A stretch of DNA of 64,000 nt, from the NCBI GenBank assembly GCA_965216755.1, contig CBDCGL010000011.1:2944001-3008000 (forward strand), in the 5' to 3' direction. The first letter of the stretch is position 1, and every line of letters begins with the position of its first letter. The stretch is from Alphaproteobacteria bacterium. GTDB taxonomy: Bacteria > Pseudomonadota > Alphaproteobacteria > UBA7887. The translations under genes were made by a program, and so were the position numbers. This document shows positions 7,883 through 38,134 of the stretch, piece by piece. A model generated the notes under the pieces. That model made no database searches. It saw nothing but the letters and a program-made list of their open reading frames with translations, and was not told the DNA's origin.

Positions 7883-7980
7883 GGCTTTATATCTCCTGCT
7901 GCGATGGTGACGGCCGCTATATTAGAGGCGCGCGCGTGATCCCGCCATGGCAACGGAGGCGGCGGCGGCATGCACACGTG

Positions 7981-8602: not shown

Positions 8603-8629
8603 GCCACGAAACGATTGTTGACGTCGAAA

Positions 8630-9190
8630 ATGAAAGAAACGAAACGCCTCGTCTCAACGGCCAAATCGCGACGGCATGTCGCTGCCGCTTTTTTCAGTCT
8701 CGCCCTGGGGGTCGCCCATGTTCACATGGCATCAAACGCACATGCTGAGGACAAAGTGATCGGCATCGAGCGTGATTGGGCGGCCGTCACATTTGAGGAA
8801 AATGGACAATTGGTATGCTACATCGTCAGCCGGCCAACAAAAAGCGCGGGAGAATATACCAAACGCGGCCCCGTCTACGTGCAGGTGACGCGTCGCGCCG
8901 GCGAACCAAACGATGTGGTGAGTTTTCAAGCCGGGTATGCATTCAATCGGTCGGAAACCATCAGCGCCAAAGTCGACGGCAAGGCGTTTGAACTCTATAC
9001 CGATGGGCGCACGCCTGAAACCGCTTGGGCGATCGGCGACGAAGGCGATCGGGCCCTGGTCGGCGCCATGCGCGACGGCGGCAAGCTGGTGATCATCGGT
9101 GTTTCGTCGCGCGGCACCGCAACCACCGACACCTATTCCCTGCTCGGTTTCACCAAGGCCCACGCCATGATTCGCGAGGCGTGCCAATAG
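8630..9190 (+). CDS. Invasion-associated locus B (IalB) family periplasmic protein
   Basis: Signal peptide, DW...CYIVSRP and [18 protein letters not shown]. Conserved position upstream of rlmN in Alphaproteobacteria. Confidence 0.8.
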
Positions 9191-15135: not shown

Positions 15136-15588
15136 ATGATTGCACTAACAGTTAATGCGACGGCGCACACGGTCGACGTGGCGCCGGATACCCCGCTGCT
15201 GTGGGTGTTGAGAGAACAACTGGGCCTGACCGGAACCAAATATGGCTGTGGAATCGGGGAGTGCGGTGCCTGCAATGTTCACATGAACGGCGAACTGATC
15301 AAGTCGTGCCAAACGTCAATTGGCAAGGCTGCCGGCGCCGACATCACCACGATCGAGGGCTTGGGTAGCGACGGTCTGCACCCCGTTCAGCAGGCGTTTA
15401 TTACAGAGAATGTCACCCAATGCGGCTATTGCATTCCGGGTCAAATCATGACCATCGCCATGATGCTGTATAGCAACCCTGAGCCGACGGATCAGGAGAT
15501 CGATGTTGCTTTGAAAGAAAACTATTGCCGCTGCGGGGCGTACACGCGGATCCGCAAGGCCGTCCACCGTGCCGCTGGTGCGGTTTGA
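15136..15588 (+). CDS. 2Fe-2S small subunit, isoquinoline 1-oxidoreductase alpha-like (IorA/CoxS family)
   Basis: Motifs GTKYGCGIGECGAC, QCGYCIPGQIM and CRCGAY. Confidence 0.93.
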   Translation: MIALTVNATAHTVDVAPDTPLLWVLREQLGLTGTKYGCGIGECGACNVHMNGELIKSCQTSIGKAAGADITTIEGLGSDGLHPVQQAFITENVTQCGYCIPGQIMTIAMMLYSNPEPTDQEIDVALKENYCRCGAYTRIRKAVHRAAGAV

Positions 15589-15604
15589 CGAACGGGAGGC
15601 ACAA

Positions 15605-17839: not shown

Positions 17840-17987
17840 TCGGGCGATTCCGGGCTGGGTCACCCGATCCCGGCCCGGACCAAGCTTGTTGTCTGACCAA
17901 ATATCCACCTGGTTGAATGGATTAGGCCTATGTCGTACGATTGAAAACCTGAATAGATCCGGCGTTGAAGCGAAACGGTGCGCCGAT

Positions 17988-22340: not shown

Positions 22341-22493
22341 GGGGATGGTCTCCTCGGCCGTGTGCAAAAACCGCTTTTTGTCTGTGGATAAGTCTAGCGC
22401 GCCCGGCATTCGCTGTCGAGGCGGTGTCGGTCGCTCTGGATCCGCGCTCGCGCATTCGATAACGTGGCGTCGGTGAGCGCGAGGGATTGCAGC

Positions 22494-24797
22494 ATGCAGA
22501 AGATTTTGGGCCGGTGCGCGGCCGCCATTGTGGTGGCCGCAACGCTGTTGGCGACAGGGTCGATTGTTTCCGTAGGCCAACTCCAAGCGCAGGACGCTGT
22601 TCCAACGCTTTTGGCGCCGAAGCCGACGGACTCGCAAGCGCCGGCGGCGGATACGGCGCCGACAGCCGGGCCCAATCTCGAAACCTATCTGGACGACGCC
22701 CTTTTGGCGATGGTGTACCCCGACGCCGATCGCGTCGGGCCGGTTGAAGGCGAACCGCCGGCCGCGGCGGTTTACAAGGGGGATGACCTTGTCGGCTATG
22801 TGTTCGAGCAATATGACGTGGTGCAAGGGGTCGGATATTCCAAACGCCCTTTTCACATGGTCATCGGCCTCGATTTGAGCGGCCATCTGACCGGCGCGCG
22901 ATTGGCCATGCATGTCGAGCCGATCGCCATTCTTGGTCGCACGGATGACGACTTCCACAAATATGTTGAGCAATTTGCTGGCATAGATATCCGCCGCGGT
23001 GTCAGCGTCATGCTGGATCTTTCCGGCTCGGCGCTGGAAGGCGACAAATTTGCCATGCGTGGTTCGGCGGGCGACGTCTCCAAGTTGACCCCTGTCGATG
23101 CCGTCTCACGCACGACCACCAGCTCGATCCTGTTCAGCGATTCAATCGTGCGCAGCGCGCGGATTATCGCGCGGACGCGCGGCATCGCGTTGGATGCGCG
23201 CGATTTGGGCCAACGGCTGGACATGGAAAGTTTCACTCCGATGCCATGGGTGGCGCTGATCGACGACGGCGCGCTCGCCCATTTGCGCCTGACGATCGCC
23301 GATGTTGCCGCGGCGTTCGCGGCCTTGCCCGACGACGCCAAGGCGCCGCGCAAGGTGCGCCTGTCGCCCGACGACGAGATCTTTGTCGATCTGTACGCGG
23401 CGGTCATTTCACCAGCCGGGATCGGGGTCAATTTGCTCGGCCGCACGTGGTACGACCAGTACATCTCCGGTCGCAATATCGAAGACGTGATTTTGTTCGT
23501 TGCCACCAAGGGTACGTATCGGTTCCACGGCGATGATCCGGCCGATGCCGCCCAGTTCTCGCGGTTGCGGCTCTTTCAAGGCGATACAGAAATCGCGTTC
23601 GGTCCGTCTTTGATGAAAACATTGCCATTTCATCACGCGACCGAAGCCCCGGACCTGGACGAAATCGGCTTGTTCTTTTTCTCCGGCGATGCGGCCCTCG
23701 ATCCAACACGTCCATGGCGTCTGGAGCTTGCCGTGGATGGCGACGGCGACACGCCGGCGCAAGCGATTTTCCCGGTCGACTACACATTGCCCGAGCGGTT
23801 CATATTGGCCCAACCAGAGGTCGAGTCACCAATCGACGCGGCGACCGATGCCATGGTGGCGGACGACGCGTCGATCGGCATCGATTGGCGCCAGTCTTGG
23901 ACCAATCAATCACGCAATATTGTGCTGTTGCTGGTGACGCTCGGTGTGCTCGTGGTGCTGTTGTCGCTGCAAGATCAGATCGCGCGCCGGCGCCGCCTGC
24001 ATCGTTGGCTGCGGATCGGGTTCCTGGCGTGGATTCTGATCTGGTTGGGCTGGTATGCGGGCGCGCAAGTGACCGTGATCAATCTTCTCAACATCGCGCA
24101 ATCAATCGTCTTTGATTTCGACTGGGCGTTTTTCATGGTCGAGCCGCTGATCTTCATCATCACGGCATTTGTCGCGCTGGGTTTGTTCTTTTGGGGGCGT
24201 GCGATCTTTTGTGGCTGGCTCTGTCCGTTTGGCGCGTTGCAGGAATTGCTGAACAACATTGCGACCGCGTTGCGCGTGCCGCAGTGGCGCATTCCAGAAG
24301 GGCTGCATCAACGCGCCATCGCGATCAAATATGTGGCGGTTCTGGCGTTGCTGGGGCTGACATTCTATTCGTTCGATCTGGCCATCATGGGCAGCAATAT
24401 CGAACCATTCAAGGCAGCCATCATCTTTCGTTTCGATGCACCGCTCGCCGCCGTCGCCTATGCCATGATTTTGTTGGTGTGTGGTTTGTTTGTTGAACGC
24501 GCCTATTGTCGCTTTCTTTGTCCGTTGGGTGCCGGTCTGGCGATCTTGGGTCGCGTGCGCATGTTCAATTGGCTCAAGCGTCGCCCTGAGTGCGGCAATC
24601 CGTGCCGCCGTTGTGAACGGGTTTGTCCGACCGGCGCCATTGGCCGCAGTGGCGCTATCGATATGAACGAATGTTTTTATTGCTTGGACTGTCAAGTCAC
24701 CTATTACGACAGTCATGAATGTCCGCCATTGGCGGCGCGCCGCAAGTCTGATCGCGCGCCACTCCAGGGGGCGCCGGTGCCGGCCGCGGCCGAATAG
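22494..24797 (+). CDS. NosR/NirI-like membrane protein (periplasmic FMN-binding-like domain, TM bundle, CxxxCP motifs, 4Fe-4S domain), copy 1
   Basis: HVEPI, DAVSRTT, GWYAGAQ, FCGWLCPFGALQEL, EPFK, YCRFLCPLG, CGNPCRRCERVCP and ECFYCLDCQ. Confidence 0.9.
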   Translation: MQKILGRCAAAIVVAATLLATGSIVSVGQLQAQDAVPTLLAPKPTDSQAPAADTAPTAGPNLETYLDDALLAMVYPDADRVGPVEGEPPAAAVYKGDDLVGYVFEQYDVVQGVGYSKRPFHMVIGLDLSGHLTGARLAMHVEPIAILGRTDDDFHKYVEQFAGIDIRRGVSVMLDLSGSALEGDKFAMRGSAGDVSKLTPVDAVSRTTTSSILFSDSIVRSARIIARTRGIALDARDLGQRLDMESFTPMPWVALIDDGALAHLRLTIADVAAAFAALPDDAKAPRKVRLSPDDEIFVDLYAAVISPAGIGVNLLGRTWYDQYISGRNIEDVILFVATKGTYRFHGDDPADAAQFSRLRLFQGDTEIAFGPSLMKTLPFHHATEAPDLDEIGLFFFSGDAALDPTRPWRLELAVDGDGDTPAQAIFPVDYTLPERFILAQPEVESPIDAATDAMVADDASIGIDWRQSWTNQSRNIVLLLVTLGVLVVLLSLQDQIARRRRLHRWLRIGFLAWILIWLGWYAGAQVTVINLLNIAQSIVFDFDWAFFMVEPLIFIITAFVALGLFFWGRAIFCGWLCPFGALQELLNNIATALRVPQWRIPEGLHQRAIAIKYVAVLALLGLTFYSFDLAIMGSNIEPFKAAIIFRFDAPLAAVAYAMILLVCGLFVERAYCRFLCPLGAGLAILGRVRMFNWLKRRPECGNPCRRCERVCPTGAIGRSGAIDMNECFYCLDCQVTYYDSHECPPLAARRKSDRAPLQGAPVPAAAE

Positions 24798-24878
24798 GGG
24801 CGACCGCCACAGCGCGAAAAAGTGCCGCCGGGCGGCAAGGTTCAGCCTTACCCGGCGGCGTATGCGTATATAGGGTTG

Positions 24879-25409
24879 CTACTCTTTGAAGACGTGAAGA
24901 TCGACCGGGCCGAAGACTTCACTCTCGCGACGCCCCGGCAGCTCCGGATATTCCGCCCAGGTGCGGCTTTGGAAATCGGCCGGCAGAGATTCCGCCACAT
25001 CCGAATACTGCACTTTGACCTTGAAGCGTATTTGGTTCATGGCCTTCGGATCATCCGTGCTGATGCAAGCCGGACCGTGACCGCCAAAATCGTCGGCGCC
25101 TTCCGTGACGCACCATTCCGGCTGCGGGCTGGCGTCGCTGTCCGGCTGCAGTTTCATAATCACGGACTGGCCTTCTTCAGGTCCGCCATTCACGTCCAAC
25201 ACGGCGTAGTAGCTATCTGCGACCCAACGCTCTTCCAAATCCTCGGGCACACCTTTGAGGAACAGAGTATAGCTTGGATATAGACCGCCGAAATACAGGC
25301 GCGCTTGTTCGGATGTGATCGAGACCACTTCGCCGGCCGTTGCCGGCAGCGCTGCCAAAGTCGTCCCGATGACGACAGCCGACGCACAAACCGTGCGCAC
25401 TATGTTCAT
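24879..25409 (-). CDS. Secreted acidic hypothetical protein (176 aa)
   Basis: GGGAGG ribosome-binding site, signal peptide ending ATA-G, and two Cys in the mature part. Lies downstream of the amidohydrolase. Confidence 0.75.
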   Translation of the reverse strand: MNIVRTVCASAVVIGTTLAALPATAGEVVSITSEQARLYFGGLYPSYTLFLKGVPEDLEERWVADSYYAVLDVNGGPEEGQSVIMKLQPDSDASPQPEWCVTEGADDFGGHGPACISTDDPKAMNQIRFKVKVQYSDVAESLPADFQSRTWAEYPELPGRRESEVFGPVDLHVFKE

Positions 25410-25464
25410 TTCACCCTCCCAGAAACCATTATTGGGATTTTCATTGCTCATACAACAATCGTCT

Positions 25465-25510
25465 ACAAAACAAAGTGGGGTCGGACGCAACGCGCCCGCC
25501 CCCACCTTTG
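25465..25510 (-). terminator. Intrinsic terminator-like hairpin after the amidohydrolase
   Basis: On the minus strand, GTGGGGGCGGGCGC-gtt-GCGTCCGACCCCAC followed by TTTGTTTT. Confidence 0.55.
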
Positions 25511-25556
25511 CATGGCACTAGCCCACGGGCATTGCCACGATCGTCACCGAACCGCG

Positions 25557-27068
25557 CTAGGCGGTACGGACGTAACCATAGCGCTTGTTGCTCGGGGCAC
25601 CGCCGGCCTCGCGATAATTGTGCGCGAGTTGTGCCAGCTTGTCCTCTGAGAAGTCCGGCAGATCAGGCATGTTGGTGGCGGAATCCATCGCCAAGCCGTA
25701 AATCCGCGCCGAGTTGAGGCCGAAGATCGCCTGTTTGGTCAGGCTGTTCGGGCCACCAAGCGACGGCAGGCCGTATTTCTCTTGCATGTCTTCCGGAACC
25801 TCGAGGCGACGCATGGCTTCGATCTGCCACTGCGGCGAGCCATACCAGACGGTGTCACTACCCCAGACGACATGATCGGCACCCATGCCGTTGACCAGCG
25901 TACCGATGAACGCAGCCGAGAAGCGCGGATGAGCGACCGCCGAATTGGCAAACGTCGATCCCAGCTCAGCGTAAACATTGGACACGCCGAATTCTTCGGG
26001 GATGCGCGCCAAGTCGCTGGCCCATTTGATGTCGCCGGTTTGTTCGAATTCCGCCCACGCTTGGTCCGGCAATTCGAGGAACGGCCGCAGCGCCGCGTGA
26101 TATTGGACGAAGTTCATTTCCGGCCAATCTTGCGCGGCCTTGCCGACGTCCCACACGGTCGCGTATTCCCACACGCCCTTGAACGATTGCTCGTAATCCG
26201 GCGGCAACAGACCTTTATGTGTACAGATCGTGTTGATGCCCGCCTTCAACGCCTTTTCGTAGAAAGGATACATCAGTTCTTCGTCGTCCAGCCGCCACGG
26301 GTATTTCGATGGCGAGAGCGGATCACCGATCGTGTAAGACTTCCACGAATCCGGCTTATATTGCTCGATGGCACGATCGACTTCATCCATCCAGCCATCT
26401 TGACCCGGCGTGATCACCGAATGACCGAGCATGCGGCGTGTGCCGGCGAAATCATTGACCATGTCGCGGGCGGCGACGATCTGATCATTGTACAACAGAT
26501 ACCAGGTCGGATCGTCGAACGGCGCGCCGCTCAACAACGCCATGGTGGTGTCACTGTTGTACCAAAGTTCACGAACATAGTTTTCGAACTTATAGCGGGT
26601 CAGTGACAGACCTTCTTCCTTGAGCTTTGGATTCCAATGCTCGGCGGCGAATTCACCAAGGCCGAGGATCGCCTCATGAGCAAAATCATCGCGCAGGAAG
26701 TGGGTCTGATCGTCAAAAATGAACTGCCCGGCCAACGCATTGGCCCGCTCCAACATCATTTCCGGGTCGCGCGCTTCGGCTTCTGAGACTTGGAACGTGT
26801 TGGTTCCGTAAATCTCTTTCATGGCCAAGAACGCCGTGGCCATACCGCAGCTGGTCTGCAGGAACTGTCGCCGCGACATGCCGAGATGTTTGGCATTCTC
26901 GTCGGCCAATTCTTTTATGCGCGCTTCGACTTGCTTTTGTTTCGGACTTTGCTTCGGCGGCAGATACTCACCGTTCGATACGATTTGTGTCGGCACCGGT
27001 GAATCGAACTCAAGGTTCTCCGCGCCGTCGACCAACCGCCGTTCTCGTTCGCTTAGCCAGTTAGACAC
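25557..27068 (-). CDS. Amidohydrolase (Amidohydro_2-like TIM barrel) with an internal twin-arginine-like motif
   Basis: FIFDDQTH, ICTHKG, QYHAA, NVYAELG and VWGSD; SRRQFL at about residue 65. GGAGG ribosome-binding site before GTG. Confidence 0.85.
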   Translation of the reverse strand: MSNWLSERERRLVDGAENLEFDSPVPTQIVSNGEYLPPKQSPKQKQVEARIKELADENAKHLGMSRRQFLQTSCGMATAFLAMKEIYGTNTFQVSEAEARDPEMMLERANALAGQFIFDDQTHFLRDDFAHEAILGLGEFAAEHWNPKLKEEGLSLTRYKFENYVRELWYNSDTTMALLSGAPFDDPTWYLLYNDQIVAARDMVNDFAGTRRMLGHSVITPGQDGWMDEVDRAIEQYKPDSWKSYTIGDPLSPSKYPWRLDDEELMYPFYEKALKAGINTICTHKGLLPPDYEQSFKGVWEYATVWDVGKAAQDWPEMNFVQYHAALRPFLELPDQAWAEFEQTGDIKWASDLARIPEEFGVSNVYAELGSTFANSAVAHPRFSAAFIGTLVNGMGADHVVWGSDTVWYGSPQWQIEAMRRLEVPEDMQEKYGLPSLGGPNSLTKQAIFGLNSARIYGLAMDSATNMPDLPDFSEDKLAQLAHNYREAGGAPSNKRYGYVRTA

Positions 27069-27343
27069 GTCTTCTCTCCTCCCAAAGTGACATCACAGAT
27101 CATTACTCTTGGACGCTATAAACGCGGCCCACATCGTGCCCTTTTGAAGGTAACGCCGTCAAAACAAAAAAACGGTGGCGCGATGACCGTTTAGCGCGCC
27201 CGGGACTTGCAGAATGGTTCAATATGGTCTGAAAGTGCGCTAGTGTCGCCCACCTGCGCCGGGCGCAGGAACGCATGGCCGTGGCATAGGTGTCTCAATC
27301 GACGCGGCGGTCTTAAGCGGCGACATGAACGTGGGGCGAGGGT

Positions 27344-29566
27344 GTGACGAGGCAAGCGCGTACGGCGCGGCCCGCAAGGTGGGGCGCGCTTTTTGTTGCG
27401 ATGTGCGTGGCCGTGGCCGGACTGGTCATGCCGACCAGTCCCACGGCTTCGGCGCAAGAAGCTGAAGAATCCTATCCGGTGCCGCTGGCCACCTGGACCA
27501 ATCCGACCACCGGCGCCGCATGGCTCAACTTGGATCTGGTCCAAGCACTGTTTCCCGAAGCCGACGATGTGGGCACGATCGAAAACGACCCGCGCGTGGC
27601 GCCGGTATACGCCAACCGCATTCTGCAAGGTTATACATTTATCACCCGCGACATCACGGAATCGCTGGGTTTTTCATCCTTACCTTTTACCATCGCGGTC
27701 GGTTTGCGGCTTGATGGCACCCTGTCGGGCGCCAGGGTCAAAGAGCATCAAGAGCCGATTATCGATCTGTACATGATCGAAAACACGATCCCCGCCTTTG
27801 CCGACCAATATACAGGCATCGATATCCGCACGCCGGTGCGTGTGCGCCTGACCAAAACACAAGACGCCGGCACGGTCGACGGCATCACGTCGGCGACCGT
27901 CAGTGCGGTTTTGTTCAACGAAGCGATTTTGCGCGCGGCGCGGCTGGTGGCATTGGCCAAGGGTATACGTCTGCATGATCAACCTGTGATGGATATCGTC
28001 GGCTATCGCCCAGCCGGATTCGCGTCGCTGGTTGCCGATGGCACTATCGGGCGCATGCGAATCAGCAAGGATGCGGCGCGCACGGCCGGCGTTGCCGCGC
28101 CCGACTTGTCGCATGATGGCATGGGCAACGATCTCTACATCTATGCCCACGAACGCGACAGCGGCGCCAAGTCGCAACCCACTTTTCCTGATGACTTGGT
28201 GATCGATCTTTATGCGGGCCCCGTCATGGTGCCGACCATCGGTCGGAATCTGCTTGGCGACAAATGGTACGATTTGTTCGTCAGTGGGCGCGATCCAAAC
28301 GCGCTCATGCTGGGGATCATGACCATAGGCCCCTATTCGATCGATGGCGAAAAGCATCTTTCCAGTGGTCCGTTCAGTCGCCTACAGCTTCGCCAAGACG
28401 GCAAGGAATGGCCGCTAACCAAGGACAATTATCGTTATTTGGGCTTCCTGCACGGCACGGACAAACCCCGCTTCGCCGAAATCGGGTTGTTCTGGGTGCC
28501 CGTTGAAAGTGGTATAGATCCGGTCCGCCCGTGGACGTTGCGCCTGTTGGTTGAAAGCGCGGTCGATGGCGCATCGGCGCCATTTGAGCTCACCTATGCG
28601 TTGGGCGACGAGTTCATATTGCAGCCGACCGGGATCGACAATGTCGTGTCAGCAGACAATACACCATTGTGGATGTCGGCGTGGCATTCACAAACCACCA
28701 ACATCGCGATATTGGCGGCGCTTCTGATCATCTTAACGATCATCTTGGTCAACATGGATGCGTTGGCGAAAAAGCCGCGTTGGCTGCAGGCGACACGTTT
28801 GTCCTTCTTGGCGGTCGTCCTTGTCTGGATGGGCTGGTATGCGGGCGCTCAACTCACCATCATCAATGTATTGACGTGGGTGCAGTCGCTGGTCACGGGG
28901 ACCGGTTTGACCGTGTTCTTGTCCGACCCCTTAATCGTTGTATTGGTCGGCTTCGTCCTGGTGACGTTCTTCATTTGGGGGCGCGGTATCTTTTGCGGTT
29001 GGCTGTGCCCATTCGGCGCTTTGCAGGAACTGCTCGGCAAGGCCGCCCAGGCGCTTGGGGTGCGCCAAATCAGTTTGAGCAACCGCGCGCATCAATGGCT
29101 TTGGCCGGTCAAATACGTCGTCTTGCTCGGGTTGGTCGGTTTGTCATTCTATTCCTTGACGATCGCCAACACAGCCGCGGAAGTTGAACCGTTTAAGACC
29201 GCCATCTCACTTCGCTTCGCGCGCGACTGGCCATATGTGGTCTATGCGCTGACCTTGCTGGCGATCGGGCTGACCATCGAACGCGCTTTTTGCCGGTTTT
29301 TGTGTCCGCTGGGCGCTGCGATGGCGATCGGTGGTCGGCTGCGCATACCGCGTTTGCTGAAACGACGCGAGGCGTGTGGTTCACCCTGCCAACTGTGTGC
29401 GCGGCGCTGTCCGATCAACGCCATAAAGCCGGATGGCCAAATCAAAATGGACGAGTGCTTTTATTGCCTGGATTGCCAAGTGCTGTATCACGACCAGCAT
29501 GTTTGCCCGCCATTGGTGCAGTCGGCCAGACGTTCGACACGCAAAACCGTGTCCCAGGCCGCTTGA
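27344..29566 (+). CDS. NosR/NirI-like membrane protein, copy 2
   Basis: HQEPI, DGITSATV, GWYAGAQL, FCGWLCPFGALQEL, EVEPFKT, FCRFLCPLG, CGSPCQLCARRCP and ECFYCLDCQ. Confidence 0.9.
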   Translation: MTRQARTARPARWGALFVAMCVAVAGLVMPTSPTASAQEAEESYPVPLATWTNPTTGAAWLNLDLVQALFPEADDVGTIENDPRVAPVYANRILQGYTFITRDITESLGFSSLPFTIAVGLRLDGTLSGARVKEHQEPIIDLYMIENTIPAFADQYTGIDIRTPVRVRLTKTQDAGTVDGITSATVSAVLFNEAILRAARLVALAKGIRLHDQPVMDIVGYRPAGFASLVADGTIGRMRISKDAARTAGVAAPDLSHDGMGNDLYIYAHERDSGAKSQPTFPDDLVIDLYAGPVMVPTIGRNLLGDKWYDLFVSGRDPNALMLGIMTIGPYSIDGEKHLSSGPFSRLQLRQDGKEWPLTKDNYRYLGFLHGTDKPRFAEIGLFWVPVESGIDPVRPWTLRLLVESAVDGASAPFELTYALGDEFILQPTGIDNVVSADNTPLWMSAWHSQTTNIAILAALLIILTIILVNMDALAKKPRWLQATRLSFLAVVLVWMGWYAGAQLTIINVLTWVQSLVTGTGLTVFLSDPLIVVLVGFVLVTFFIWGRGIFCGWLCPFGALQELLGKAAQALGVRQISLSNRAHQWLWPVKYVVLLGLVGLSFYSLTIANTAAEVEPFKTAISLRFARDWPYVVYALTLLAIGLTIERAFCRFLCPLGAAMAIGGRLRIPRLLKRREACGSPCQLCARRCPINAIKPDGQIKMDECFYCLDCQVLYHDQHVCPPLVQSARRSTRKTVSQAA

Positions 29567-29670: not shown

Positions 29671-30441
29671 ATGAACGGACCCGACCATTCGTTGATCTTT
29701 AAGTGGATCCTGGGCAATTCCTTTGCGGGGTTCGGACTTTTTATTGCGTGGCAGCAAGGCTGGCTGTCGCTGGTGGTTGCGAGTGACGCGAGCTATCTAA
29801 GCGTCGTCATGACCGCGATTTTCCTCATTTTTTGGGCCCTGAGCACGTATAAGGCGATCAGCCTGAACCGCGAGGTCAATCGGTTTCGCGCGGGCGCACC
29901 ACACGGGGTCGCCGCCGATTACATGTCCAAAATCCGGCGCGTTGCGGCGCAATCACATGGCGCCAAAGTCGACCAGGCGACGTTCGCCAACAATCTTCAG
30001 GCGCATTTGCTGCTGGCCATACAGCCGGTCAATTTTACCGCGAACTTGCTTATCCTGCTTGGTCTCATCGGCACTGTGATTGGTTTTGTTATCGCCGTTG
30101 GTGGCTTGGGCGACGCGTTGACCGGCGGCGATGGTCCCGAACGCGTGCGCGCCGTCCTCGCCCAAATCGTCAATGGCATGGGCGTGGCGTTGTTCACAAC
30201 CCTGGTCGGCAGCATCCTCGGCGGAATCTGGCTTCAGTTGCACTATCAACTTCTGTTTCGCACCAGCGCCCGTTTGGCACTGGAGATCGTTGAACATGCG
30301 GAGCTCGCAATTCTGCGCGACATGTCGTCGCCAGCCCCGGACACGTTGGCCGAGGCGCGCGACAATTGGTCGGTATCCAGCGCCAAAGCGGCCGGCCAGG
30401 TCGCGGGCGGCGAGCGCATTGCGCGAACTATGGTCCGCTGA
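29671..30441 (+). CDS. MotA/TolQ/ExbB proton-channel family protein
   Basis: The TM motifs LLGLIGTVIG and GMGVALFTTLVG match the ExbB/TolQ channel helices. Four predicted TMs. Confidence 0.88.
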   Translation: MNGPDHSLIFKWILGNSFAGFGLFIAWQQGWLSLVVASDASYLSVVMTAIFLIFWALSTYKAISLNREVNRFRAGAPHGVAADYMSKIRRVAAQSHGAKVDQATFANNLQAHLLLAIQPVNFTANLLILLGLIGTVIGFVIAVGGLGDALTGGDGPERVRAVLAQIVNGMGVALFTTLVGSILGGIWLQLHYQLLFRTSARLALEIVEHAELAILRDMSSPAPDTLAEARDNWSVSSAKAAGQVAGGERIARTMVR

Positions 30442-30451
30442 CTGATCCGCC

Positions 30452-31048
30452 ATGACACCCGTGCTGAATGCCCTCAAGGGCGATACCGAATCAGCCGGCG
30501 TCGCATTTCGCGACGTCTTGTTTCTGATGGTGTTGAGCCTGGTCATCGTCATTTTCCTCATCTCTCTGTTGATCAACCCGCAAGAGGAGGAAGAGGCACC
30601 GCTGCGCACCGATATCGTGATCGAGGCGATGTGGCCGAGTGGCGAGGCGCATGATATCGACCTTTGGGCAATGGGGCCCGACGAGGTTCCGGTCGGATGG
30701 GGACTCAGCTCTGCCGGGCCGTCGCTCAATCTGGAACGCGATGACCGGGGCATCATTAACGACGCCACGACACTGAATTACGAGATCATCACCGTGCGGG
30801 ACAAGACGCCTGGCGAGTATCTTATCAACCTTCACCTTTACAATGAGTTTGAAAGTGTCTTGCCGGTGCCCGTGACGGTTAAAGTCACCGGTCGCGGCGG
30901 CCTCGGCGAGATCTTTTCCGGTGAAGTCAGAATCAATGAACGCAAACAAGAGGTGACGGTTGTCCGGTTTCGGCTCGACGAAGACGGCAATCTGGTCGAA
31001 GACAGCATCAACGACATGTTCAAATGTATTCTCTGTCGAAGGGGATGA
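30452..31048 (+). CDS. Single-TM MotB/ExbD-like partner with a YfaP/DUF2135-like periplasmic domain
   Basis: AFRDVLF places an Asp at the start of the TM helix. The periplasmic part reads W..G..HDIDLW..GP...LERDDRG...E...PGEYLINLHLY. Confidence 0.7.
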   Translation: MTPVLNALKGDTESAGVAFRDVLFLMVLSLVIVIFLISLLINPQEEEEAPLRTDIVIEAMWPSGEAHDIDLWAMGPDEVPVGWGLSSAGPSLNLERDDRGIINDATTLNYEIITVRDKTPGEYLINLHLYNEFESVLPVPVTVKVTGRGGLGEIFSGEVRINERKQEVTVVRFRLDEDGNLVEDSINDMFKCILCRRG

Positions 31049-31076
31049 CCGGTGACGGTGCGGGCGAGCTGATGTT

Positions 31077-31502
31077 ATGGACGCGACCGTCATTCTGATC
31101 CCGGCACTGTGCGCCGCGGCGGTTACATTTTTACTTGCGATGCTATTTATCGAGTGGCGTCGCCACTGGTTCGGATATTGTTTGCTGTTTGGGCTTGCGA
31201 CGACGGCGCTTGGGCTACCCCTCTACGCCATGCGCGATGTGTTGGGCTTGCCGGATCCGGCCCCGGCCGGTGGGACTTACGAGCTGGTTGGATGGAAGAA
31301 CGACGAGTACGCCGATCAGTCATATCTCTTTGTCGCGCGCGAGGGCGAAGTCGTCCCGCGACATTTCGCGGTTGCATTTGATATGGAAAGCGCTTTGCAG
31401 TTGCATCGCTTGGCGGAAAGCGTGGACAGGCTTGATCGCGTGCGAATCTCCATTGAAAGAGGTCAAAATGGTGACACGATTTTCGTCCCGTCGCGCAAAT
31501 AG
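31077..31502 (+). CDS. Small 2-TM hypothetical membrane protein
   Basis: Two hydrophobic helices, then LGLPDPAP.GG.YELV...YLFV...PRHFAV. Operon-like spacing. Confidence 0.7.
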   Translation: MDATVILIPALCAAAVTFLLAMLFIEWRRHWFGYCLLFGLATTALGLPLYAMRDVLGLPDPAPAGGTYELVGWKNDEYADQSYLFVAREGEVVPRHFAVAFDMESALQLHRLAESVDRLDRVRISIERGQNGDTIFVPSRK

Positions 31503-31589
31503 GCGACCTGGCTTGCGTGAGAACGAGCCTATGACCGTTTTGGTGACGACGCGTGATGGGCGCCGACAGCATCATGCGGTGCGACGACC

Positions 31590-32045
31590 GTGAGTCATCT
31601 CATCCTTTACGGCCTGTTTGCCGCGCTGGTGTGTTTCTTGGTCGTTGCCGTTATGACCCGATCACGGCGGCTGCGGACACTCGCGGTGATGGCCGGCGCG
31701 GTCGCACTTTGGCTGCCGTATTTTGCTTTGACCCATGCGCTCGGCAATCCCAATCCGTTCCCGCCAACCGGGAACTTTCAGCTGTTGGCGTCACGTATAG
31801 ATCAAGCCAATGGCGATTGGTACATCCTGATTGACGGATATCGGCAAGCGGGCCCACCGCGCTCGTTTGTCGTGCCACTCCCCGATGTGCATGAGCGCGA
31901 TCTGCCTCGGGGGTCGCCATACGATCCGGCCGACGTTTTCTTGTCGCGCGGTGCGGGCGGCGCGATGGAATTGTTAGAGGTCGACTATTATCCGCCCGAC
32001 CCGCCGAAGGGCACGCGCAATTACGGTCAAATCGGCGCGGAGTAG
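31590..32045 (+). CDS. Small 2-TM hypothetical membrane protein (paralog of 31077-31502)
   Basis: Two hydrophobic helices, then LGNPNPFP.TG.FQLL...YILI...PRSFVV. Confidence 0.7.
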   Translation: MSHLILYGLFAALVCFLVVAVMTRSRRLRTLAVMAGAVALWLPYFALTHALGNPNPFPPTGNFQLLASRIDQANGDWYILIDGYRQAGPPRSFVVPLPDVHERDLPRGSPYDPADVFLSRGAGGAMELLEVDYYPPDPPKGTRNYGQIGAE

Positions 32046-32145: not shown

Positions 32146-32174
32146 TTGACCGTGTCTGAGCGACAATTGAAAAT
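32146..32174 (+). promoter_or_regulatory. Possible sigma-70 promoter of the PQQ dehydrogenase
   Basis: TTGACC-N17-GAAAAT in the intergenic region. Confidence 0.3.
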
Positions 32175-32300
32175 CTTTGCGGCTGAATTCACATGAACGT
32201 GCTGCGACTTGCAGTGTCGCATCCAGTGGATGGTTGCTATCAGCCGCAAACTGAGCCAGGAGACGTATGCCAATCTAAGACAACTGGGAGGAAAAAAGGG

Positions 32301-34001
32301 ATGAAGTGGTGGTCCCCGCGATGTTTCATCGCACCAATGGCGCTAATCGTGCCGATTGTATCTGTTGGGATTTCGGCAGAGCTTCAGGCCGGGCCGGTAC
32401 GAGATACGGATTTGCTTGTGCCCGCCGGAGAAGAATGGCTGCATGTAAATGGCAATGCCGAAGGCACGCGCTATAGCACGCTGACGCAAATAAACGCAGG
32501 CAATGTCGGCGAACTGAAAATGGCTTGGCTGTTCAGCACGGGCGGCGATACGTTCCACCAAGCCACGCCAGTGACCCATGACGGCATTGTGTACTTCCCA
32601 CAGTCCTACTCGGTGTTTGCCATCGATGGCCGCACCGGCCGCCGTATCTGGAAGTTCCACGAAGATCCACCGGAGGATTTGGGCGGCGACAATCCCGATC
32701 TGTTCCGTGGCACGCATCGCGGCGTGGCGTTGTACGGCGACAATGTCTACTACCTGACCCAAGACAATAAAATTATCGCGCTTGATCAGAAGACCGGCGA
32801 CGTGGTCATGGAAACCGACCGCCTGCGCGATTATGCCAAGGCCTACGATATGGCCGAGGACGCCAACGGCTATTGGTCGACGGTGGCGCCCATGGCGATT
32901 CCGGGTAAGATCATCGTGCCCATGAATGCCACCGATACGGGTGGGCTGCCCGGCTTTGTGATCGGCGTCGATCCTGATTCCGGTGAGACTCTTTGGGAAT
33001 CCAACATGATTCCGAAAGAGGGCGAGCCGGGCTATGACTCGTGGCCAGGCAACAGCGCCGACTATGGCGGTGGCGGCCCCTGGCTGACCGGATCGTTCGA
33101 CGGGGAAACCAACACCTATTTCACCGGGACGGCCAATGCCATGCCGTGGAATCCCTATGGGCGCGGCGATGGTATGATGGATAATGTTGGCGCGGCAAGT
33201 ATCGTCGCGGTCAACACCGACACGGGCGAAGTCCGATGGCGTTATGTGGTAGTGCCCGGCGATCCGTTCGATTACGACGTGCCGGGTGTGCCAATGATCA
33301 TCACGGTCGGCGGCAGCAAGACGATCGTGCAGCCGAACAAGACCGGCTACATGCATTATCTGGACGCCGCCACGGGTGAATTCCTTAGGGTCGCACGGAT
33401 TTCGGACAAGATCACTTGGGCCGAAGGCTATGGCAAGGATGGGCGGCCGATCAATCAAGTCACGCTGCCGAAAGAAGGCGATCCCCAGATCGAAATCTGG
33501 CCAAGCCTGCTTGGCGCCGTCAATCTCTATCCGAGCGCCTATAATCCGAATACCGGCATGATCTATATGCCAACCCGCCACAAGTCGATGCTGTATGGAT
33601 TCGAAAAGGTCCAGTATCGCGCCAAGGCGGCTAATTTTGGTGCAGTGTTCGAATTCCCGGAAGGCGGCAACGAAATCAATCTTGCCTATGATGTCGAGTC
33701 GGGAACCGAAGTTTGGCGTGACCACAAAGCGACAGACGGCTATGCGGGCGGTATGCTGACCACCGCCGGCAATCTCGTTTTCTATGGCAGCCAAGGCGGT
33801 ATTTTCCACGCTGTCGAGGCCACCACGGGCGAGGTCCTTTACACCTTCAACATGGGCACAACCTTCAAGGCGGGGCCGATGACGTACATGTTGGACGGCA
33901 CCCAGTATGTGGTTGGTTTGGCAGGCCACGTGCCGGGTCTTGGCAATGAAGATCATCCGCTTGAGCCGAATGGCGGCTATTTGTACGCGTTCACGCGTTA
34001 A
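32301..34001 (+). CDS. Periplasmic PQQ-dependent dehydrogenase (8-bladed beta-propeller, divergent alcohol dehydrogenase-like)
   Basis: Signal peptide; RYSTLTQINAGNV, repeated A.D..TG...W Trp-docking motifs, GGGGPW, GTANAMPWN, DPFDYD, GGMLTTAGNLVF and PMTYMLDGTQYV. Confidence 0.92.
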   Translation: MKWWSPRCFIAPMALIVPIVSVGISAELQAGPVRDTDLLVPAGEEWLHVNGNAEGTRYSTLTQINAGNVGELKMAWLFSTGGDTFHQATPVTHDGIVYFPQSYSVFAIDGRTGRRIWKFHEDPPEDLGGDNPDLFRGTHRGVALYGDNVYYLTQDNKIIALDQKTGDVVMETDRLRDYAKAYDMAEDANGYWSTVAPMAIPGKIIVPMNATDTGGLPGFVIGVDPDSGETLWESNMIPKEGEPGYDSWPGNSADYGGGGPWLTGSFDGETNTYFTGTANAMPWNPYGRGDGMMDNVGAASIVAVNTDTGEVRWRYVVVPGDPFDYDVPGVPMIITVGGSKTIVQPNKTGYMHYLDAATGEFLRVARISDKITWAEGYGKDGRPINQVTLPKEGDPQIEIWPSLLGAVNLYPSAYNPNTGMIYMPTRHKSMLYGFEKVQYRAKAANFGAVFEFPEGGNEINLAYDVESGTEVWRDHKATDGYAGGMLTTAGNLVFYGSQGGIFHAVEATTGEVLYTFNMGTTFKAGPMTYMLDGTQYVVGLAGHVPGLGNEDHPLEPNGGYLYAFTR

Positions 34002-34016
34002 ATCGGATGGCATGCG

Positions 34017-34055
34017 GAAAAGGGCACGGGTGCGTTTGCGCACGTGCCCTTTTTC
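34017..34055 (+). terminator. Hairpin/terminator after the PQQ dehydrogenase
   Basis: AAAAGGGCACG...CGTGCCCTTTTT stem followed by a U-tract. Confidence 0.65.
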
Positions 34056-34116
34056 TCGCCATCGCCAGCCATCGGGTAACCGACCTAAGGCCGATCAAAC
34101 GAGGATTGATGGAACG

Positions 34117-34545
34117 ATGACGCAAAAGTCTCGCCGAACCGTCCGGCTTGTTATTTTGGGATTCTGTGTTGTGGCCATGGGCGCGTGGTCGATCGCCGGA
34201 CGCGTGCACGCCTCACCATCTGAGGTTGAATCGTCAAATCCCCTCAGTGGTGACGAAGACGCCATTGAGACGGGGGCACAGCTGTTTGCGGAAAACTGCA
34301 CCCTCTGTCACGGGCGCAAGGCGAACGGCAAAACCGGTCGATGGGCCTCCGCCGATCTGACCAAGTACAGAAAAGGCTATACCCGGTTTCTCAAAATCGT
34401 TCAAAAGGGTGTCGAGCCAAAGCGCGGATCAAACAACCAAATGCCGCCGTGGGAAGAGTTTCTGGATGAGACACAAATCGGAATGATTGGTGCTTATTTG
34501 GAGACTTTGGCCGCGCGCGGCGCAAAGTGGGTTGATCCGAAATAA
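34117..34545 (+). CDS. Class I c-type cytochrome, probable electron acceptor of the PQQ enzyme
   Basis: Signal peptide; NPLSGDEDAIETGAQLFAENCTLCH heme motif and distal Met in NQMPPW. Confidence 0.9.
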   Translation: MTQKSRRTVRLVILGFCVVAMGAWSIAGRVHASPSEVESSNPLSGDEDAIETGAQLFAENCTLCHGRKANGKTGRWASADLTKYRKGYTRFLKIVQKGVEPKRGSNNQMPPWEEFLDETQIGMIGAYLETLAARGAKWVDPK

Positions 34546-35055: not shown

Positions 35056-36372
35056 TCATACAAGGACCAAAGCCAATTCTGGCACCAAGATAATCAATAC
35101 CACGACAAGAAGCATGATCACGGCAAACGGAAACGCACCCGCAAAAATATCGAACAAACTGATTTCGTCTGTGGAAAGCGTGCTCTTGATCACGTAGGCG
35201 GCGATGCCCAAAGGCGGGGTCAACAAACCGATTTCAACGCCGATCACTGTGATCACGCCAAACCAAACCAGATCAACGTCAAACGGGGCCAGCATCGGCA
35301 TGAACAACGGCACCACGATCAGAATGATCGACGTGGAATCCAGCACGGTCCCAAGCACCAACAATATGACGACGTAAACGGCGAGCAATCCGTAAAGGCC
35401 GAATTCCGCCGTGGCCACGGCAGTGCCGAGCTGTCCGCTGATCCCTGACAACCCCAGCATGCGGCTGTACATGCTTGCGGCGATAACCAAAAAACAAATC
35501 GACGCGGTGATGTGTCCGGTTTCAATCAGCACATGCCAAAACGCACGCAGATTCAACTTGCCCTTGGCCAACGCGATAACCAGTGCGCCGAGCGCGCCGG
35601 CGGCGCCGGCCTCAGTTGGCGTGAACACGCCACCGTAAATACCGCCGATCACCAGTGCCACCAACAGCCCGATGGGCGCTAGCTTGCCGGCGATTTCTGG
35701 GCCGCTTAAATGGCCGGCATCCGGCGCACCGGCGGATGCCAGCGCGCCGCCGACATAGCCGGGCGTGAATCGCGCCATGGCGATGATCGCCAAACAAAAC
35801 GCCGCCGAAAGAACGATGCCCGGAACGATGGCCGCCAAGAACATATCGCCGACCGATTGCTCGGTCAGCACGGCGTAAATGATCAACAGCAGACTTGGCG
35901 GAATGAGCATGCCGAGGATGGAGCTGCCGGCCACGACGCCGACGGCAAATCGTGGTCGGTAGCCGAACCGCAACATCTCGGGCACTGCCACGCGGGTGAA
36001 GATTGCCGCCGACGCGATGCTGATGCCGGTGATCGCCGCGAACACCGCGTTGGCCGCCACCGTTGCGATTCCCAAGCCGGCGCGCACACGACGAAACGCC
36101 TGATTGGCGACCGCGAACGCATCGCTACCCATGTCGGCGGCGCCAACCAGCAGCCCCATCAAAACAAACAACGGGATGACGCCAAAGATATAGCTAGAAA
36201 TGCTATCCGACGCGGCCAGCGTCAAAAGCTTGACCGCGACGGTCAAGTTGCCCTTGATTGCCCAAACGCCCAGAAACGAAACCAGGGCCAAGACCACAGG
36301 CACATACATGCCGAGGTAAATCAGCGCTAAGATGAGCGCGATGGACGCGACCCCGATTTCAATCCCGGTCAC
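35056..36372 (-). CDS. dctM: TRAP transporter large permease
   Basis: Motifs IPLFVLMG, LGMLIPPS, FTPTEA and GLLTPPLG. Confidence 0.93.
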   Translation of the reverse strand: MTGIEIGVASIALILALIYLGMYVPVVLALVSFLGVWAIKGNLTVAVKLLTLAASDSISSYIFGVIPLFVLMGLLVGAADMGSDAFAVANQAFRRVRAGLGIATVAANAVFAAITGISIASAAIFTRVAVPEMLRFGYRPRFAVGVVAGSSILGMLIPPSLLLIIYAVLTEQSVGDMFLAAIVPGIVLSAAFCLAIIAMARFTPGYVGGALASAGAPDAGHLSGPEIAGKLAPIGLLVALVIGGIYGGVFTPTEAGAAGALGALVIALAKGKLNLRAFWHVLIETGHITASICFLVIAASMYSRMLGLSGISGQLGTAVATAEFGLYGLLAVYVVILLVLGTVLDSTSIILIVVPLFMPMLAPFDVDLVWFGVITVIGVEIGLLTPPLGIAAYVIKSTLSTDEISLFDIFAGAFPFAVIMLLVVVLIILVPELALVLV

Positions 36373-36947
36373 GGGCGTGCGTCATCCCTTGGCCGATCCA
36401 CGCGCGGCGCGCCGTGTGCCAGGTCACGATACAAGAGCAGTGCAAACTGAATCGCCAAGGCCGCGCAGCCGACAACAATGATCAATCGCACGGGCCAAAC
36501 CGGGGCAACGAATATGCCCTGATTGCCGACATAGTGGCCTTTTGTCCAAGCTTGGGTAAAACGCGGCACGCTGCCGTACAGGATAATCAATGACAAAAAC
36601 ACGCCGGTGGCGTTGAACACCGCCGAAAGACCGCGCGCGATTGTCGGCGCGCGATCGCCAATGCGGCTGAATGCTGCATCGGAGCGTGTTAGGCGACCGA
36701 CCCGCAGGGTGTGCGGCAACTGCAGAAAAACGATTCCAACAATCGATAGCTCGACATTTTCCTTTACCCCTGGCACCGGACTGGACAAAAGAAATCGGCC
36801 AAAAATATCGAGGTTGATCAAAACCATCAGGCCAAAGATGCAGGCCGTGCCAACCGCATTGAGCGCGGCGACCACGCCGGCAAACGACCACGGTCGCCAT
36901 GGCGCGGGCGGCGCGGATTGGCTGCCGGTAGATGGCGCGGGGGGCAT
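36369..36947 (-). CDS. dctQ: TRAP transporter small permease
   Basis: Four TMs; DIFGRF...PVPGVKE. Lies between dctP and dctM. Confidence 0.88.
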   Translation of the reverse strand: MPPAPSTGSQSAPPAPWRPWSFAGVVAALNAVGTACIFGLMVLINLDIFGRFLLSSPVPGVKENVELSIVGIVFLQLPHTLRVGRLTRSDAAFSRIGDRAPTIARGLSAVFNATGVFLSLIILYGSVPRFTQAWTKGHYVGNQGIFVAPVWPVRLIIVVGCAALAIQFALLLYRDLAHGAPRVDRPRDDARP

Positions 36948-36962
36948 CGCGATACCGCCGCG

Positions 36963-38057
36963 CTAGCGATCCCAGTCGCGATAGATCGGCTGATCGGCGG
37001 CGCGCATGCTGTCCATGTAGGCTTCAAGTATGGCCCGACCCGGCAGGCCTTGAGATTCCAGGTCATCGGCCCATGCACCGGCAATATCGGGCAAAGCGTT
37101 CGCCCATTGCTTGCGCTGATCCTGCGCCAATTCGAGGATTTCACCACCATTGTCGGTATAGGCCTGCATACCCTTTGTGGCCGTATCGACGACGAATTTG
37201 GCCGACTCATCGCGATAGTCGATGGCGACGTCCCGCAGAACTTCTTGGACGACGGCGGGCAACGTGTCCCACACGTCTTTGTTGACCGTCACGGCGAACG
37301 AATTGACCGCGCCCAGATCGGCCTTGAGGTAATAGGGCGCGACTTCATAGAGCTTGAAGTTGCCGGCGGCTTCCGCCCAAACGATGCAGCCTTCATAGAT
37401 GCCGTTCTTGATGCCGTTGTACCATTCGGCTAGGGTTGAATTGACTCCCGTTGCGCCGATCCCCTCCAGCCACAGCAGGTTCGGTCCCGCGCCGCCGATC
37501 TTCATGCCGTCAAAATCCGCGAGCGCCCGGATCGGTGTCGCGGTCACGACCTGATAGGTGTCAACCGTACCCGTCGCCGCCAGATAGACCTGGTTGTATT
37601 GGTCCCAGCTCTGTTGCATTTCGGGAAAACGCGCCGTCAAGGAATCGATCGTGCGCACCACCAAAGGCAAATCATCGGTCACAAATGGCGTCACGAAGGC
37701 GACGTTGTAGAGCGGCAGTTTGTCGACGTGAAACGGTGTCACAACGATGCCGATATCACCAATCCCGGTCTCGATCGCTTCGAACTCGCCGCGCGGTTTG
37801 ACGACGGTCCCGCTGAATCCCTCGGTCCATGCGATGTCATAGTCACCACCGCGTTCGGCCAGGCGCCGGTCAACTTCGGGCATGAAATAGGCCTGAAACA
37901 TGTGCACCCAAGACGCCACCGGCGAATAGCCGGAAACCGCGGTCAAGCTGATTGTCTCGGCGCGCGCCGCCTCTATGGCCCCGGTCGATAGGGCCAAGAG
38001 CGCCAATCCAATTTTGGCCAGACGCGCCGCATATTTGTTGGCTGGACAATGGCTCAT
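36963..38057 (-). CDS. dctP: TRAP transporter substrate-binding protein
   Basis: Signal peptide; GIGDIG, DFDGMKI and VNKDVWDTLP. Confidence 0.88.
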   Translation of the reverse strand: MSHCPANKYAARLAKIGLALLALSTGAIEAARAETISLTAVSGYSPVASWVHMFQAYFMPEVDRRLAERGGDYDIAWTEGFSGTVVKPRGEFEAIETGIGDIGIVVTPFHVDKLPLYNVAFVTPFVTDDLPLVVRTIDSLTARFPEMQQSWDQYNQVYLAATGTVDTYQVVTATPIRALADFDGMKIGGAGPNLLWLEGIGATGVNSTLAEWYNGIKNGIYEGCIVWAEAAGNFKLYEVAPYYLKADLGAVNSFAVTVNKDVWDTLPAVVQEVLRDVAIDYRDESAKFVVDTATKGMQAYTDNGGEILELAQDQRKQWANALPDIAGAWADDLESQGLPGRAILEAYMDSMRAADQPIYRDWDR

Positions 38058-38134
38058 GGAATCCTTCCCTACGCGCGCGGCCGCCCGCCCGCGGTCAATG
38101 GCCACTGCATTTGCAAGGGGCCCGAACCGTATCT

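Follow-up and report, generated by a model that had tools for sequence, protein, structure and literature searches.

What work could be done by a membrane complex of the MotA/ExbB kind whose genes have neither flagellar genes nor a TonB, TolA or Pal gene in their neighbourhood? This question is raised by a cassette of four open reading frames (ORFs), g1 to g4, on the plus strand of a 64,000-nucleotide stretch of contig CBDCGL010000011.1 (positions 2,944,001 to 3,008,000 of assembly GCA_965216755.1, Alphaproteobacteria bacterium), the whole of which we call the window. The evidence gathered here speaks for an A-B-C branch that is distinct within the MotA/ExbB superfamily and in which g1 would be the A subunit, g2 the B subunit, and g3 and g4 two copies (C and C′) of a third, apparently obligatory component with two transmembrane (TM) helices. 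With evenly balanced confidence, we favour the reading that the four proteins form an ion-driven complex comparable to MotAB or ExbBD, whose client in this lineage is the neighbouring lanthanide-type pyrroloquinoline quinone (PQQ) dehydrogenase together with its cytochrome.

The four ORFs lie between positions 29671 and 32045, where a preliminary description made from the letters of the window had placed them, and are separated by intergenic gaps of 10, 28 and 87 bases (the coordinates of all features are collected in Table 1). The GC content at the three codon positions is of the coding type for both g1 (0.61/0.45/0.72) and g2 (0.61/0.37/0.69). The antisense ORF that overlaps these two genes outscored both of them in a crude gene caller, and its codon-position contrast is poorer; because it has no Pfam match, whereas the plus-strand genes are conserved elsewhere, it is best regarded as a shadow ORF. 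A scan for regulatory signals returned fewer promoter-like sites than shuffled sequences did, and terminator-like sites that were not above chance.

The assignment of g1 is carried by its match to Pfam family MotA_ExbB (PF01618; 31.2 bits over residues 120-205, cut-off 22.9), a domain found in nearly all of the 221 relatives retrieved by a word-indexed search. Across 27 aligned relatives, the residues G131-L-I-G-T135-V, G138, F139, G169, M170, A173, L174, T176, T177 and G180 are invariant and sit in two hydrophobic helices of the form GLIGTVxGF and GMxxALxTTxxG, the latter with W187. When the profile of the family was compared with solved structures, MotA (8gqy) was matched at an E value of 2.6e-4 (23.9 bits), with GLIGTViGF and GMgvALfTTLvG falling on the channel helices TM3 and TM4. 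The ExbB/MotA-like character that had been read from the motifs GLIGTVIG (residues 131-138) and GVALFTTLVG (171-180), both of which are present, is thereby borne out. Hydropathy reveals three strongly hydrophobic segments and a weaker, conserved N-terminal one; since the second and third are only about 55 residues apart, g1 has no room for a torque domain of the MotA type. Matches to ZorA are marginal for the family profile, and reach 16.7 bits for g1 itself against the NCBIfam model (cut-off 500). No NCBIfam model for ExbB, TolQ, ExbD or TolR matches g1 or g2, and that collection yielded nothing useful for any of the four proteins.

Stator-type complexes are coupled to ion flow through an Asp residue of the B partner, the proton binding at D32 in MotB, D25 in ExbD and D23 in TolR. 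The gene g2, which begins 10 bases downstream of g1, encodes a protein with a short cytoplasmic N-terminus and a single strongly hydrophobic segment, modelled as a helix over residues 12-41, within which the motif AFRDVLF (18-24) places D21 toward the cytoplasmic end. Among 31 relatives, F19 is invariant, and position 21 carries Asp in 30 sequences and Glu in the other; in a larger alignment of 151 sequences (the window protein and the 150 best representatives), the position is Asp in 141, the remainder comprising five gaps, two Asn and three other residues. The Asp is also retained in all five phage and Azospirillum B proteins that were read, and its conservation, which the preliminary description had put forward as decisive, therefore holds for the phage copies as well. 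The family to which g2 belongs is large: a profile search covering 1.84 billion representative proteins returned 2523 clusters at E≤1e-3, of which 830 reach E≤1e-30, the proteins being about 150 to 320 residues long; a word-indexed search with g2 had yielded only 142 relatives.

In canonical B subunits the periplasmic domain binds peptidoglycan or a partner protein. That of g2 was said to be neither OmpA-like nor ExbD-like, and this is what we observed: no OmpA or ExbD/TolR match was obtained with Pfam in g2 or its 31 relatives (E≤1), nor with NCBIfam for g2, and the AlphaFold2 model (mean predicted local distance difference test score, pLDDT, of 87.7) shows an all-beta domain after the helix. 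Foldseek comparison of this model with the PDB gave six matches at E≤1e-3 (TM-scores 0.33-0.52, identity 10-17%), five of which are sandwiches either of the TerD type or with calcium bound (2qng, chains A and B of 2qz7, 3ibz and 2lge), with the calcium-binding TerD protein 2kxt next in the list at 1.6e-3. The E values of 2.7e-5 to 1.6e-3 and TM-scores of 0.43-0.52 against 2qng, 2qz7, 3ibz and 2kxt indicate a similar fold class and imply neither homology nor calcium sites. Viral structure models gave a similar picture, their significant matches including proteins annotated as TerD. No TerD row appeared in the Pfam search of the 31 relatives (E≤1) or in the PDB sequence search (E≤10). In the comparison of the g2 profile with PDB sequences, the only match, a marginal one to an Internalin K repeat (E 0.0016), covers a generic beta-hairpin and was dismissed.

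Two details that had been read by eye from g2 did not survive this comparison. The string W..DIDLW..P..RDD.G...PGEY, from which a YfaP/DUF2135 domain had been suspected, is present, but g2 scores 14.2 bits against DUF2135 (PF09906), below the cut-off of 22, and five of its 31 relatives give sub-threshold rows at E≤1; DUF2135 is also the nearest named Atlas cluster to g2 (score 0.82, a lead only) and is not mentioned in the full-text literature searched. We consider a TerD-like beta-sandwich to be the better description. The terminal CILC is likewise present near the C-terminus, and was found in one of 30 aligned relatives, so that it is not a feature of the family. The conserved residues of the domain are W61, D68, D70, D97 and E111, invariant in all 151 sequences, and W72, R96, D98, G100, D104, N109, R116, G121, N126, H128, E167 and T169, conserved in at least 92% of them. 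The fold class and these residue types make it a reasonable proposition that the domain holds a pocket, probably for a Ca2+-type cation or for a cation-dependent ligand such as a glycan.

The third component is represented twice in the cassette. BLASTP aligns 124 residues of g3 and g4 with 27% identity and a pairwise E value of 1e-7, which confirms the two as paralogues; both have the layout with two TM helices. The AlphaFold2 model of g3 (mean pLDDT 70.3) has TM helices at residues 4-26 and 31-55, a short Pro-rich stretch and a C-terminal domain of about 90 residues whose order of elements, beta1-beta2-beta3-alpha-beta4-beta5, is that of the oligonucleotide/oligosaccharide-binding (OB) fold; Foldseek found nothing for it in the PDB at E≤1e-3, the best rows being OB folds at about 0.1. 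A homologue search with g3 returned no protein but g3 itself, and the alignment was built from 11 locus-derived sequences, in which G57, P59, G66, G72, W73, E77, P94, F101, A106, L107 and L109 are invariant. As the loops between the helices are basic (WRRHW in g3, TRSRRLR in g4), the positive-inside rule suggests that the C-terminal domains are periplasmic. Prediction of a complex of g1 (residues 1-215), g2 and g3 at 1:1:1, which is not the native stoichiometry, with g3 taken as the partner, gave scores of 0.13 and 0.10, where the mark is 0.32; these values speak neither for nor against binding. The constant presence of C beside A and B, phages included, argues for membership of g3 and g4 in the module and for nothing further, such as the transducer role suggested for them in the preliminary description.

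Conservation of the whole cassette was examined by a genome scan with a narrow alignment, which is biased to close relatives and the marine clade, and by tblastn with the window proteins. We obtained 16 related loci in metagenome-assembled genomes (MAGs) that carry the titles SAR324, Rhodospirillaceae, Alphaproteobacteria, Pelagibacterales and Tectimicrobiota. Fourteen of them have a g1 homologue ahead of the g2 homologue, the exceptions being L002, whose contig ends 90 bases upstream, and L015; g3-like and g4-like genes both follow in 14 as well, with L015 and the truncated L016 lacking them. The order g1-g2-g3-g4 is repeated in related loci, and the four-gene arrangement is more than chance. 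Because g3-type and g4-type orthologues are distinct across these 14 loci, the duplication of C, a trait of the marine clade of the window, is older than the divergence of that clade. Two SAR324 loci depart from the common plan. A second cassette in one MAG (L013, 4613-7607) reads B′-A-B-C-C′, a further B paralogue standing ahead of A, and L015 (2341-3132) holds a solo B variant of 263 residues with a charged C-terminal extension, right after a TonB-dependent receptor gene and with no A or C nearby.

The same loci connect the cassette to a periplasmic oxidation system. In 11 of the 16, a PQQ dehydrogenase gene occurs within 6 kb, in three arrangements (eight divergent upstream, two co-directional downstream as in the window, one co-directional upstream), and a c-type cytochrome gene adjoins the PQQ gene in 10. 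Of the five loci without a PQQ gene, three (L005, L011 and L012) run into a contig end; in L013 and L015 the flanks are long enough, and the gene is missing all the same. Together with the size of the g2 family, these conserved neighbours mean that the module cannot be called an orphan, as it had been. The PQQ dehydrogenase of the window has 6zcv and 6zcw as its best solved relatives (E 6e-79), its FDYDVPG aligning with their DFD, and the motif D-Y-D, of the form D-x-D, is found in all 11 cassette-linked enzymes compared (10 loci and the window, the truncated L006 copy being left out). According to the available text of PMC11996626, 6ZCW is the lanthanide-dependent PedH and D-x-D is diagnostic of lanthanide binding; the words ExbB, MotA, NosR and SAR324 do not occur in its main text. 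By this motif, with its extra Asp two residues past the catalytic Asp, the enzyme of the window is predicted to be of the lanthanide type. Its ORF overlaps that of the cytochrome (33907-34001), so that at least one of the two start codons was called too early; the cytochrome is the likely electron acceptor of the dehydrogenase.

Starting from the family membership of g1, the conserved Asp21 and fold class of g2, and the conserved gene order, we propose the following mechanism. The g1 protein would form an ion-conducting outer ring around a central TM helix provided by g2, presumably as a 5:2 assembly. Uptake and release of the coupling ion, most likely H+, by Asp21 would allow ion flow to move g1 relative to g2. 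The TerD-like sandwich of g2, with its acidic and aromatic putative pocket, would probably offer a site for a Ca2+-type cation or a cation-dependent ligand, and g3 and g4 would most likely be peripheral subunits moved by the ring, their OB-like domains exposed near the membrane. The mass outside the membrane would be wholly periplasmic and close to the membrane. Because phage A proteins have essentially no cytoplasmic mass and B and C have no linker spanning the periplasm, the complex is expected to act near the periplasmic face of the inner membrane, and neither in the cytoplasm nor at the outer membrane. Its client in this lineage would probably be the adjacent lanthanide-type PQQ dehydrogenase and cytochrome c system, since its linkage to the cassette in the clade of the window is persistent yet rearranged.

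Several observations weigh against this proposal. The link to PQQ genes is absent from both Azospirillum modules, from the phages, and from L013 and L015, and within one clade it could be inherited synteny. The g1 family matches solved MotA weakly, at 23.9 bits, and apart from the pattern of the TM Asp, no homology of g2 to ExbD, TolR or MotB can be detected at the sequence level. Its TerD likeness is structural only (12-17% identity at the TM-scores given above), and cation binding is argued from fold class and residue types, no Pfam TerD match being found in the 31 relatives. The g3 model, finally, is mediocre and has no significant structural match. Because the Azospirillum and phage modules are without a PQQ link, service to a PQQ enzyme would not be the ancestral or general role of the family.

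The Azospirillum modules bear most directly on the first alternative, a general envelope module of the Tol type, in which the g2 sandwich would be a cation-dependent anchor to peptidoglycan or another glycan (the role of the OmpA-like domain in MotB), g3 and g4 would have the cell wall, or envelope proteins close to the membrane, as their target, and the adjacency to PQQ genes would be inherited. We regard it as rather unlikely, though a serious contender. Searched by tblastn, plasmids gave matches only in seven Azospirillum chromids, at two places each, and in A. brasilense Sp7 p1 both places hold A, B and a C gene, with an A protein that matches PF01618 at 34.0 bits. No PQQ dehydrogenase is present in the flanks fetched for either module. 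The module there stands alone among housekeeping and envelope genes, and module 1 has as neighbours an Amidase_3 gene (N-acetylmuramoyl-L-alanine amidase) and a BON-domain gene, besides purU-like and phyR-like genes. This alternative would also accommodate the protein with a TM helix and TPR repeats that stands beside the cassette in seven marine loci, the invariant Trp residues and the Asp/Asn/Glu cluster of g2, a combination fitting for Ca-dependent sugar binding, the presence among the best structural rows of g3 of OB folds, some of which bind sugars, and weak CBM60 rows in two of 31 g2 relatives (E 0.15). However, no peptidoglycan- or carbohydrate-binding family reaches significance in the Pfam search of g2 and its 31 relatives, and a PQQ linkage that is rearranged but persistent across differently named lineages is hard to ascribe to inertia alone.

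The phage copies raise a second alternative, that of a phage-derived conflict module (superinfection exclusion, control of membrane potential or Zorya-like sensing) domesticated by bacteria and incidental to the window. Homologues of B occur in 27 phage records, or 29 with a gammaproteobacterial query, all of them Rhizobium or Sinorhizobium phages, 16-3 (p040) included. In the four phages inspected, A, B and C follow one another in order among early or DNA-metabolism genes, sometimes broken by small ORFs and in RHph_X2_25 by an HNH endonuclease gene between B and C; a trypsin-like peptidase gene lies near the module in three of the four. The A-B-C unit is present in bacteria and in Rhizobium/Sinorhizobium phages, the distribution of the cassette being one of the checks that the preliminary description had named. 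The phage A proteins are 113-147 residues long, with little beyond their TM helices, and score 27.3, 23.2 and 20.1 bits against PF01618, the fourth giving no match, so that two are above the cut-off and one just below; the B copies keep the TM Asp and the motifs DxDLW and RDDxG. Two of the three Atlas clusters nearest to g3 are 100% viral, and PADLOC returned weak local ZorA rows for g1 (best 23.8 bits over 56 residues). We nevertheless judge such an origin of the function improbable, given the lack of any effector, nuclease or long tail of the ZorA type, the absence of PADLOC matches for g2 to g4, and the absence of a PHROGs family for A or B (g3 gave one marginal row, E 7.5e-4). Neither phage genes, among the 64 window ORFs scanned, nor a compositional break (GC content 0.576-0.587 in the cassette, 0.57-0.63 in the flanks) is found near the cassette, and both Azospirillum copies lie among housekeeping genes.

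Ion-driven metal handling is a further possibility, again an improbable one: the acidic pocket of B would capture Ca2+ or Ln3+ at the periplasmic face, and ion-coupled movement would load or exchange the metal of periplasmic enzymes, in this clade the lanthanide-type PQQ dehydrogenase, with the duplicated C proteins as adaptors; the minimal phage version would manipulate periplasmic cation or membrane-potential homeostasis in the course of infection. Finally, an ordinary ExbBD or TolQR pair with its TonB or TolA encoded elsewhere in the genome would explain the Pfam family of g1 but is hardly credible, since g2 has no ExbD/TolR domain, no NCBIfam model for these proteins is matched, partners of the g2 type constitute their own family of 2523 clusters, and the module always comes with its own third component. 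No TonB_C, TolA or Pal-type gene was found among the 64 window ORFs scanned, and the separation from ordinary ExbBD/TolQR systems with a cognate TonB or TolA, drawn in the preliminary description, has held; with its own B family and a TM Asp, "separate stator-like family" is a fair description of the module.

Other genes of the window place the cassette in a wider setting (Table 1). Both NosR-like proteins carry Fer4_5 and FMN_bind domains and score below the 1000-bit cut-off of NCBIfam TransRegNosR, and no nosZ is in view near their genes. Since NosR-like genes abut the cassette in three of the 16 related loci (L003, L004 and L005) and an amidohydrolase gene stands beside it in two (L007 and L013), a larger conserved periplasmic redox cluster is suggested. 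A 208-residue protein without family is also encoded between the two NosR-like genes (22464-29566), and a promoter-like site is located before the PQQ gene at 32146-32174. Farther away lie a pair of 2Fe-2S and molybdopterin oxidoreductase genes (15136-17839) and, just downstream of the PQQ cluster, genes for a tripartite ATP-independent periplasmic (TRAP) transporter, DctPQM, on the minus strand (35056-38105), which are consistent with a region devoted to the oxidation of small organic compounds. Adenylate/guanylate cyclase domains fused to TPR repeats are encoded at 17886-19883 and 39296-41194, and a homologue of these proteins is found near the solo B variant in L015 (3852-5762). Two protein families recur in the marine loci: the TM and TPR protein already mentioned (family 5, about 350 residues), by the cassette or the PQQ cluster in L001, L007, L009, L010, L011, L012 and L014, and an unannotated protein of about 175 residues (family 6), after cytochrome c in L001, L003, L007, L009, L010, L014 and L016. 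Neither has a homologue in the window, so they were not counted as parts of the module.

Table 1. Features of the cassette and its surroundings in the window, and modules inspected in Azospirillum and phages (coordinates are those of the window unless a locus is named)
Feature	Location	Strand	Basis or remark
NosR-like protein, second copy, 777 aa	22464-24797		NCBIfam NosR 574 bits
Amidohydro_2 gene with twin-arginine (TAT) signal	25557-27068	-	Between the NosR-like genes, divergently transcribed
NosR-like membrane flavin mononucleotide (FMN)/4Fe-4S protein, 740 aa	27344..29566	+	Ends 105 bases upstream of g1; TransRegNosR 609.8 bits
g1, A subunit, 256 aa	29671..30441	+	Pfam PF01618, MotA/ExbB/TolQ-family membrane protein
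Antisense ORF, 271 aa	29953..30768	-	Overlaps g1 and g2
g2, B subunit, 198 aa	30452..31048	+	One TM helix and periplasmic beta-sandwich (about 55-175), AlphaFold2 model
Asp21 codon (GAC) of g2	30512..30514	+	Cytoplasmic third of the TM helix
Conserved polar/aromatic cluster of g2 periplasmic domain	30632..30973	+	Alignment of 151 sequences
g3, C subunit, 141 aa	31077..31502	+	Two TM helices and OB-like periplasmic domain, AlphaFold2 model
g4, C′ subunit, 151 aa	31590..32045	+	Paralogue of g3, same two-TM layout
PQQ-dependent alcohol dehydrogenase	32193..34001	+	Pfam PQQ 202.8 bits; true start probably downstream of 32193
c-type cytochrome	33907..34545	+	Pfam Cytochrome_CBB3 39.7 and Cytochrom_C 30.2 bits; start codon uncertain
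A. brasilense Sp7 p1 module 1 (L019)	A 7025-7852, B 7839-8450, single C 8447-8968		
A. brasilense Sp7 p1 module 2 (L022)	A 5303-5956, B, C 6611-7147		
Phage 16-3 module	L018 4208-6069		
Phage modules inspected (L017, L018, L020, L021)	16-3 p038/p040/p042; RHph_X2_25; P10VF 191-193; RHph_N3_19 065-067		

The MotA/ExbB superfamily powers flagella, TonB-dependent import, Tol-Pal envelope maintenance, gliding and Zorya defence, and another large branch, built differently in the periplasm and equipped with its own third subunit, would give this class of motors one more kind of output. The phage versions would be the smallest natural A subunits for mechanistic study. For organisms without the known lut or lanmodulin genes, we know of no account of the supply or servicing of periplasmic lanthanide enzymes, and the placement of the cassette beside lanthanide-type PQQ dehydrogenases in marine bacteria makes it a concrete candidate for that question. 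The link to lanthanide-dependent periplasmic metabolism is specific and testable, and the presence of the module in phages is unexpected. No published description of this module was found in the full-text literature, subscription-only papers lying outside the search.

Compared with ExbB-ExbD-TonB and TolQ-TolR-TolA, the module has an A subunit of the same Pfam family with a compact cytoplasmic part, a B subunit encoded just downstream with a single TM helix and an Asp near its cytoplasmic end, and a third component that is anchored in the membrane and exposes a domain to the periplasm. It differs in that its B domain is a TerD-like sandwich and not an ExbD/TolR fold, and in that the window shows no linked gene for Pal or a TonB-dependent receptor. 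Whereas TonB and TolA have one TM helix, a long Pro-rich linker and a C-terminal domain, g3 and g4 each combine two TM helices with an OB-like domain of about 90 residues, with no linker that would reach the outer membrane. With MotA-MotB and PomA-PomB it shares the Asp-bearing B helix, an A family whose best solved match is MotA 8gqy, and a number of hydrophobic segments that resembles the four of MotA; it lacks the cytoplasmic domain by which they generate torque (about 55 residues in g1, none in phage A), the OmpA-like peptidoglycan-binding domain, the plug-linker and nearby flagellar genes. ZorA-ZorB is likewise non-flagellar and phage-linked and is matched weakly by g1 over the channel helices, but g1 has no long ZorA tail (256 residues against model lengths of 461-1063), no effectors of the ZorC/D/E type accompany it, and g2 matches no ZorB model.

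TerD proteins, which are soluble, cytoplasmic or membrane-associated and encoded in ter operons, provide the nearest fold to the g2 periplasmic domain, both in the PDB and among viral models, and are similarly rich in conserved acidic residues; they differ by the lack of any sequence-level match and by not being fused to an Asp-bearing TM helix beside a MotA/ExbB gene. MxaACKL and MxaRS are encoded by membrane-associated accessory genes of the calcium-dependent methanol dehydrogenase and are needed for metal insertion. They belong to unrelated families (a MoxR ATPase and proteins with von Willebrand factor A domains), none of which recurs in the loci examined, and the resemblance is one of functional analogy, accessory membrane genes being clustered in both cases with a periplasmic PQQ dehydrogenase. 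The available text of PMC12505986 describes a heterogeneous set of non-flagellar relatives of the stators, named "GIT", whose B domains are compact and which carry DUF appendages, and does not describe the A-B-C architecture. Machines of the MotA/ExbB kind are already known, and what is new here is an A-B-C branch whose B subunit bears a TerD-like domain.

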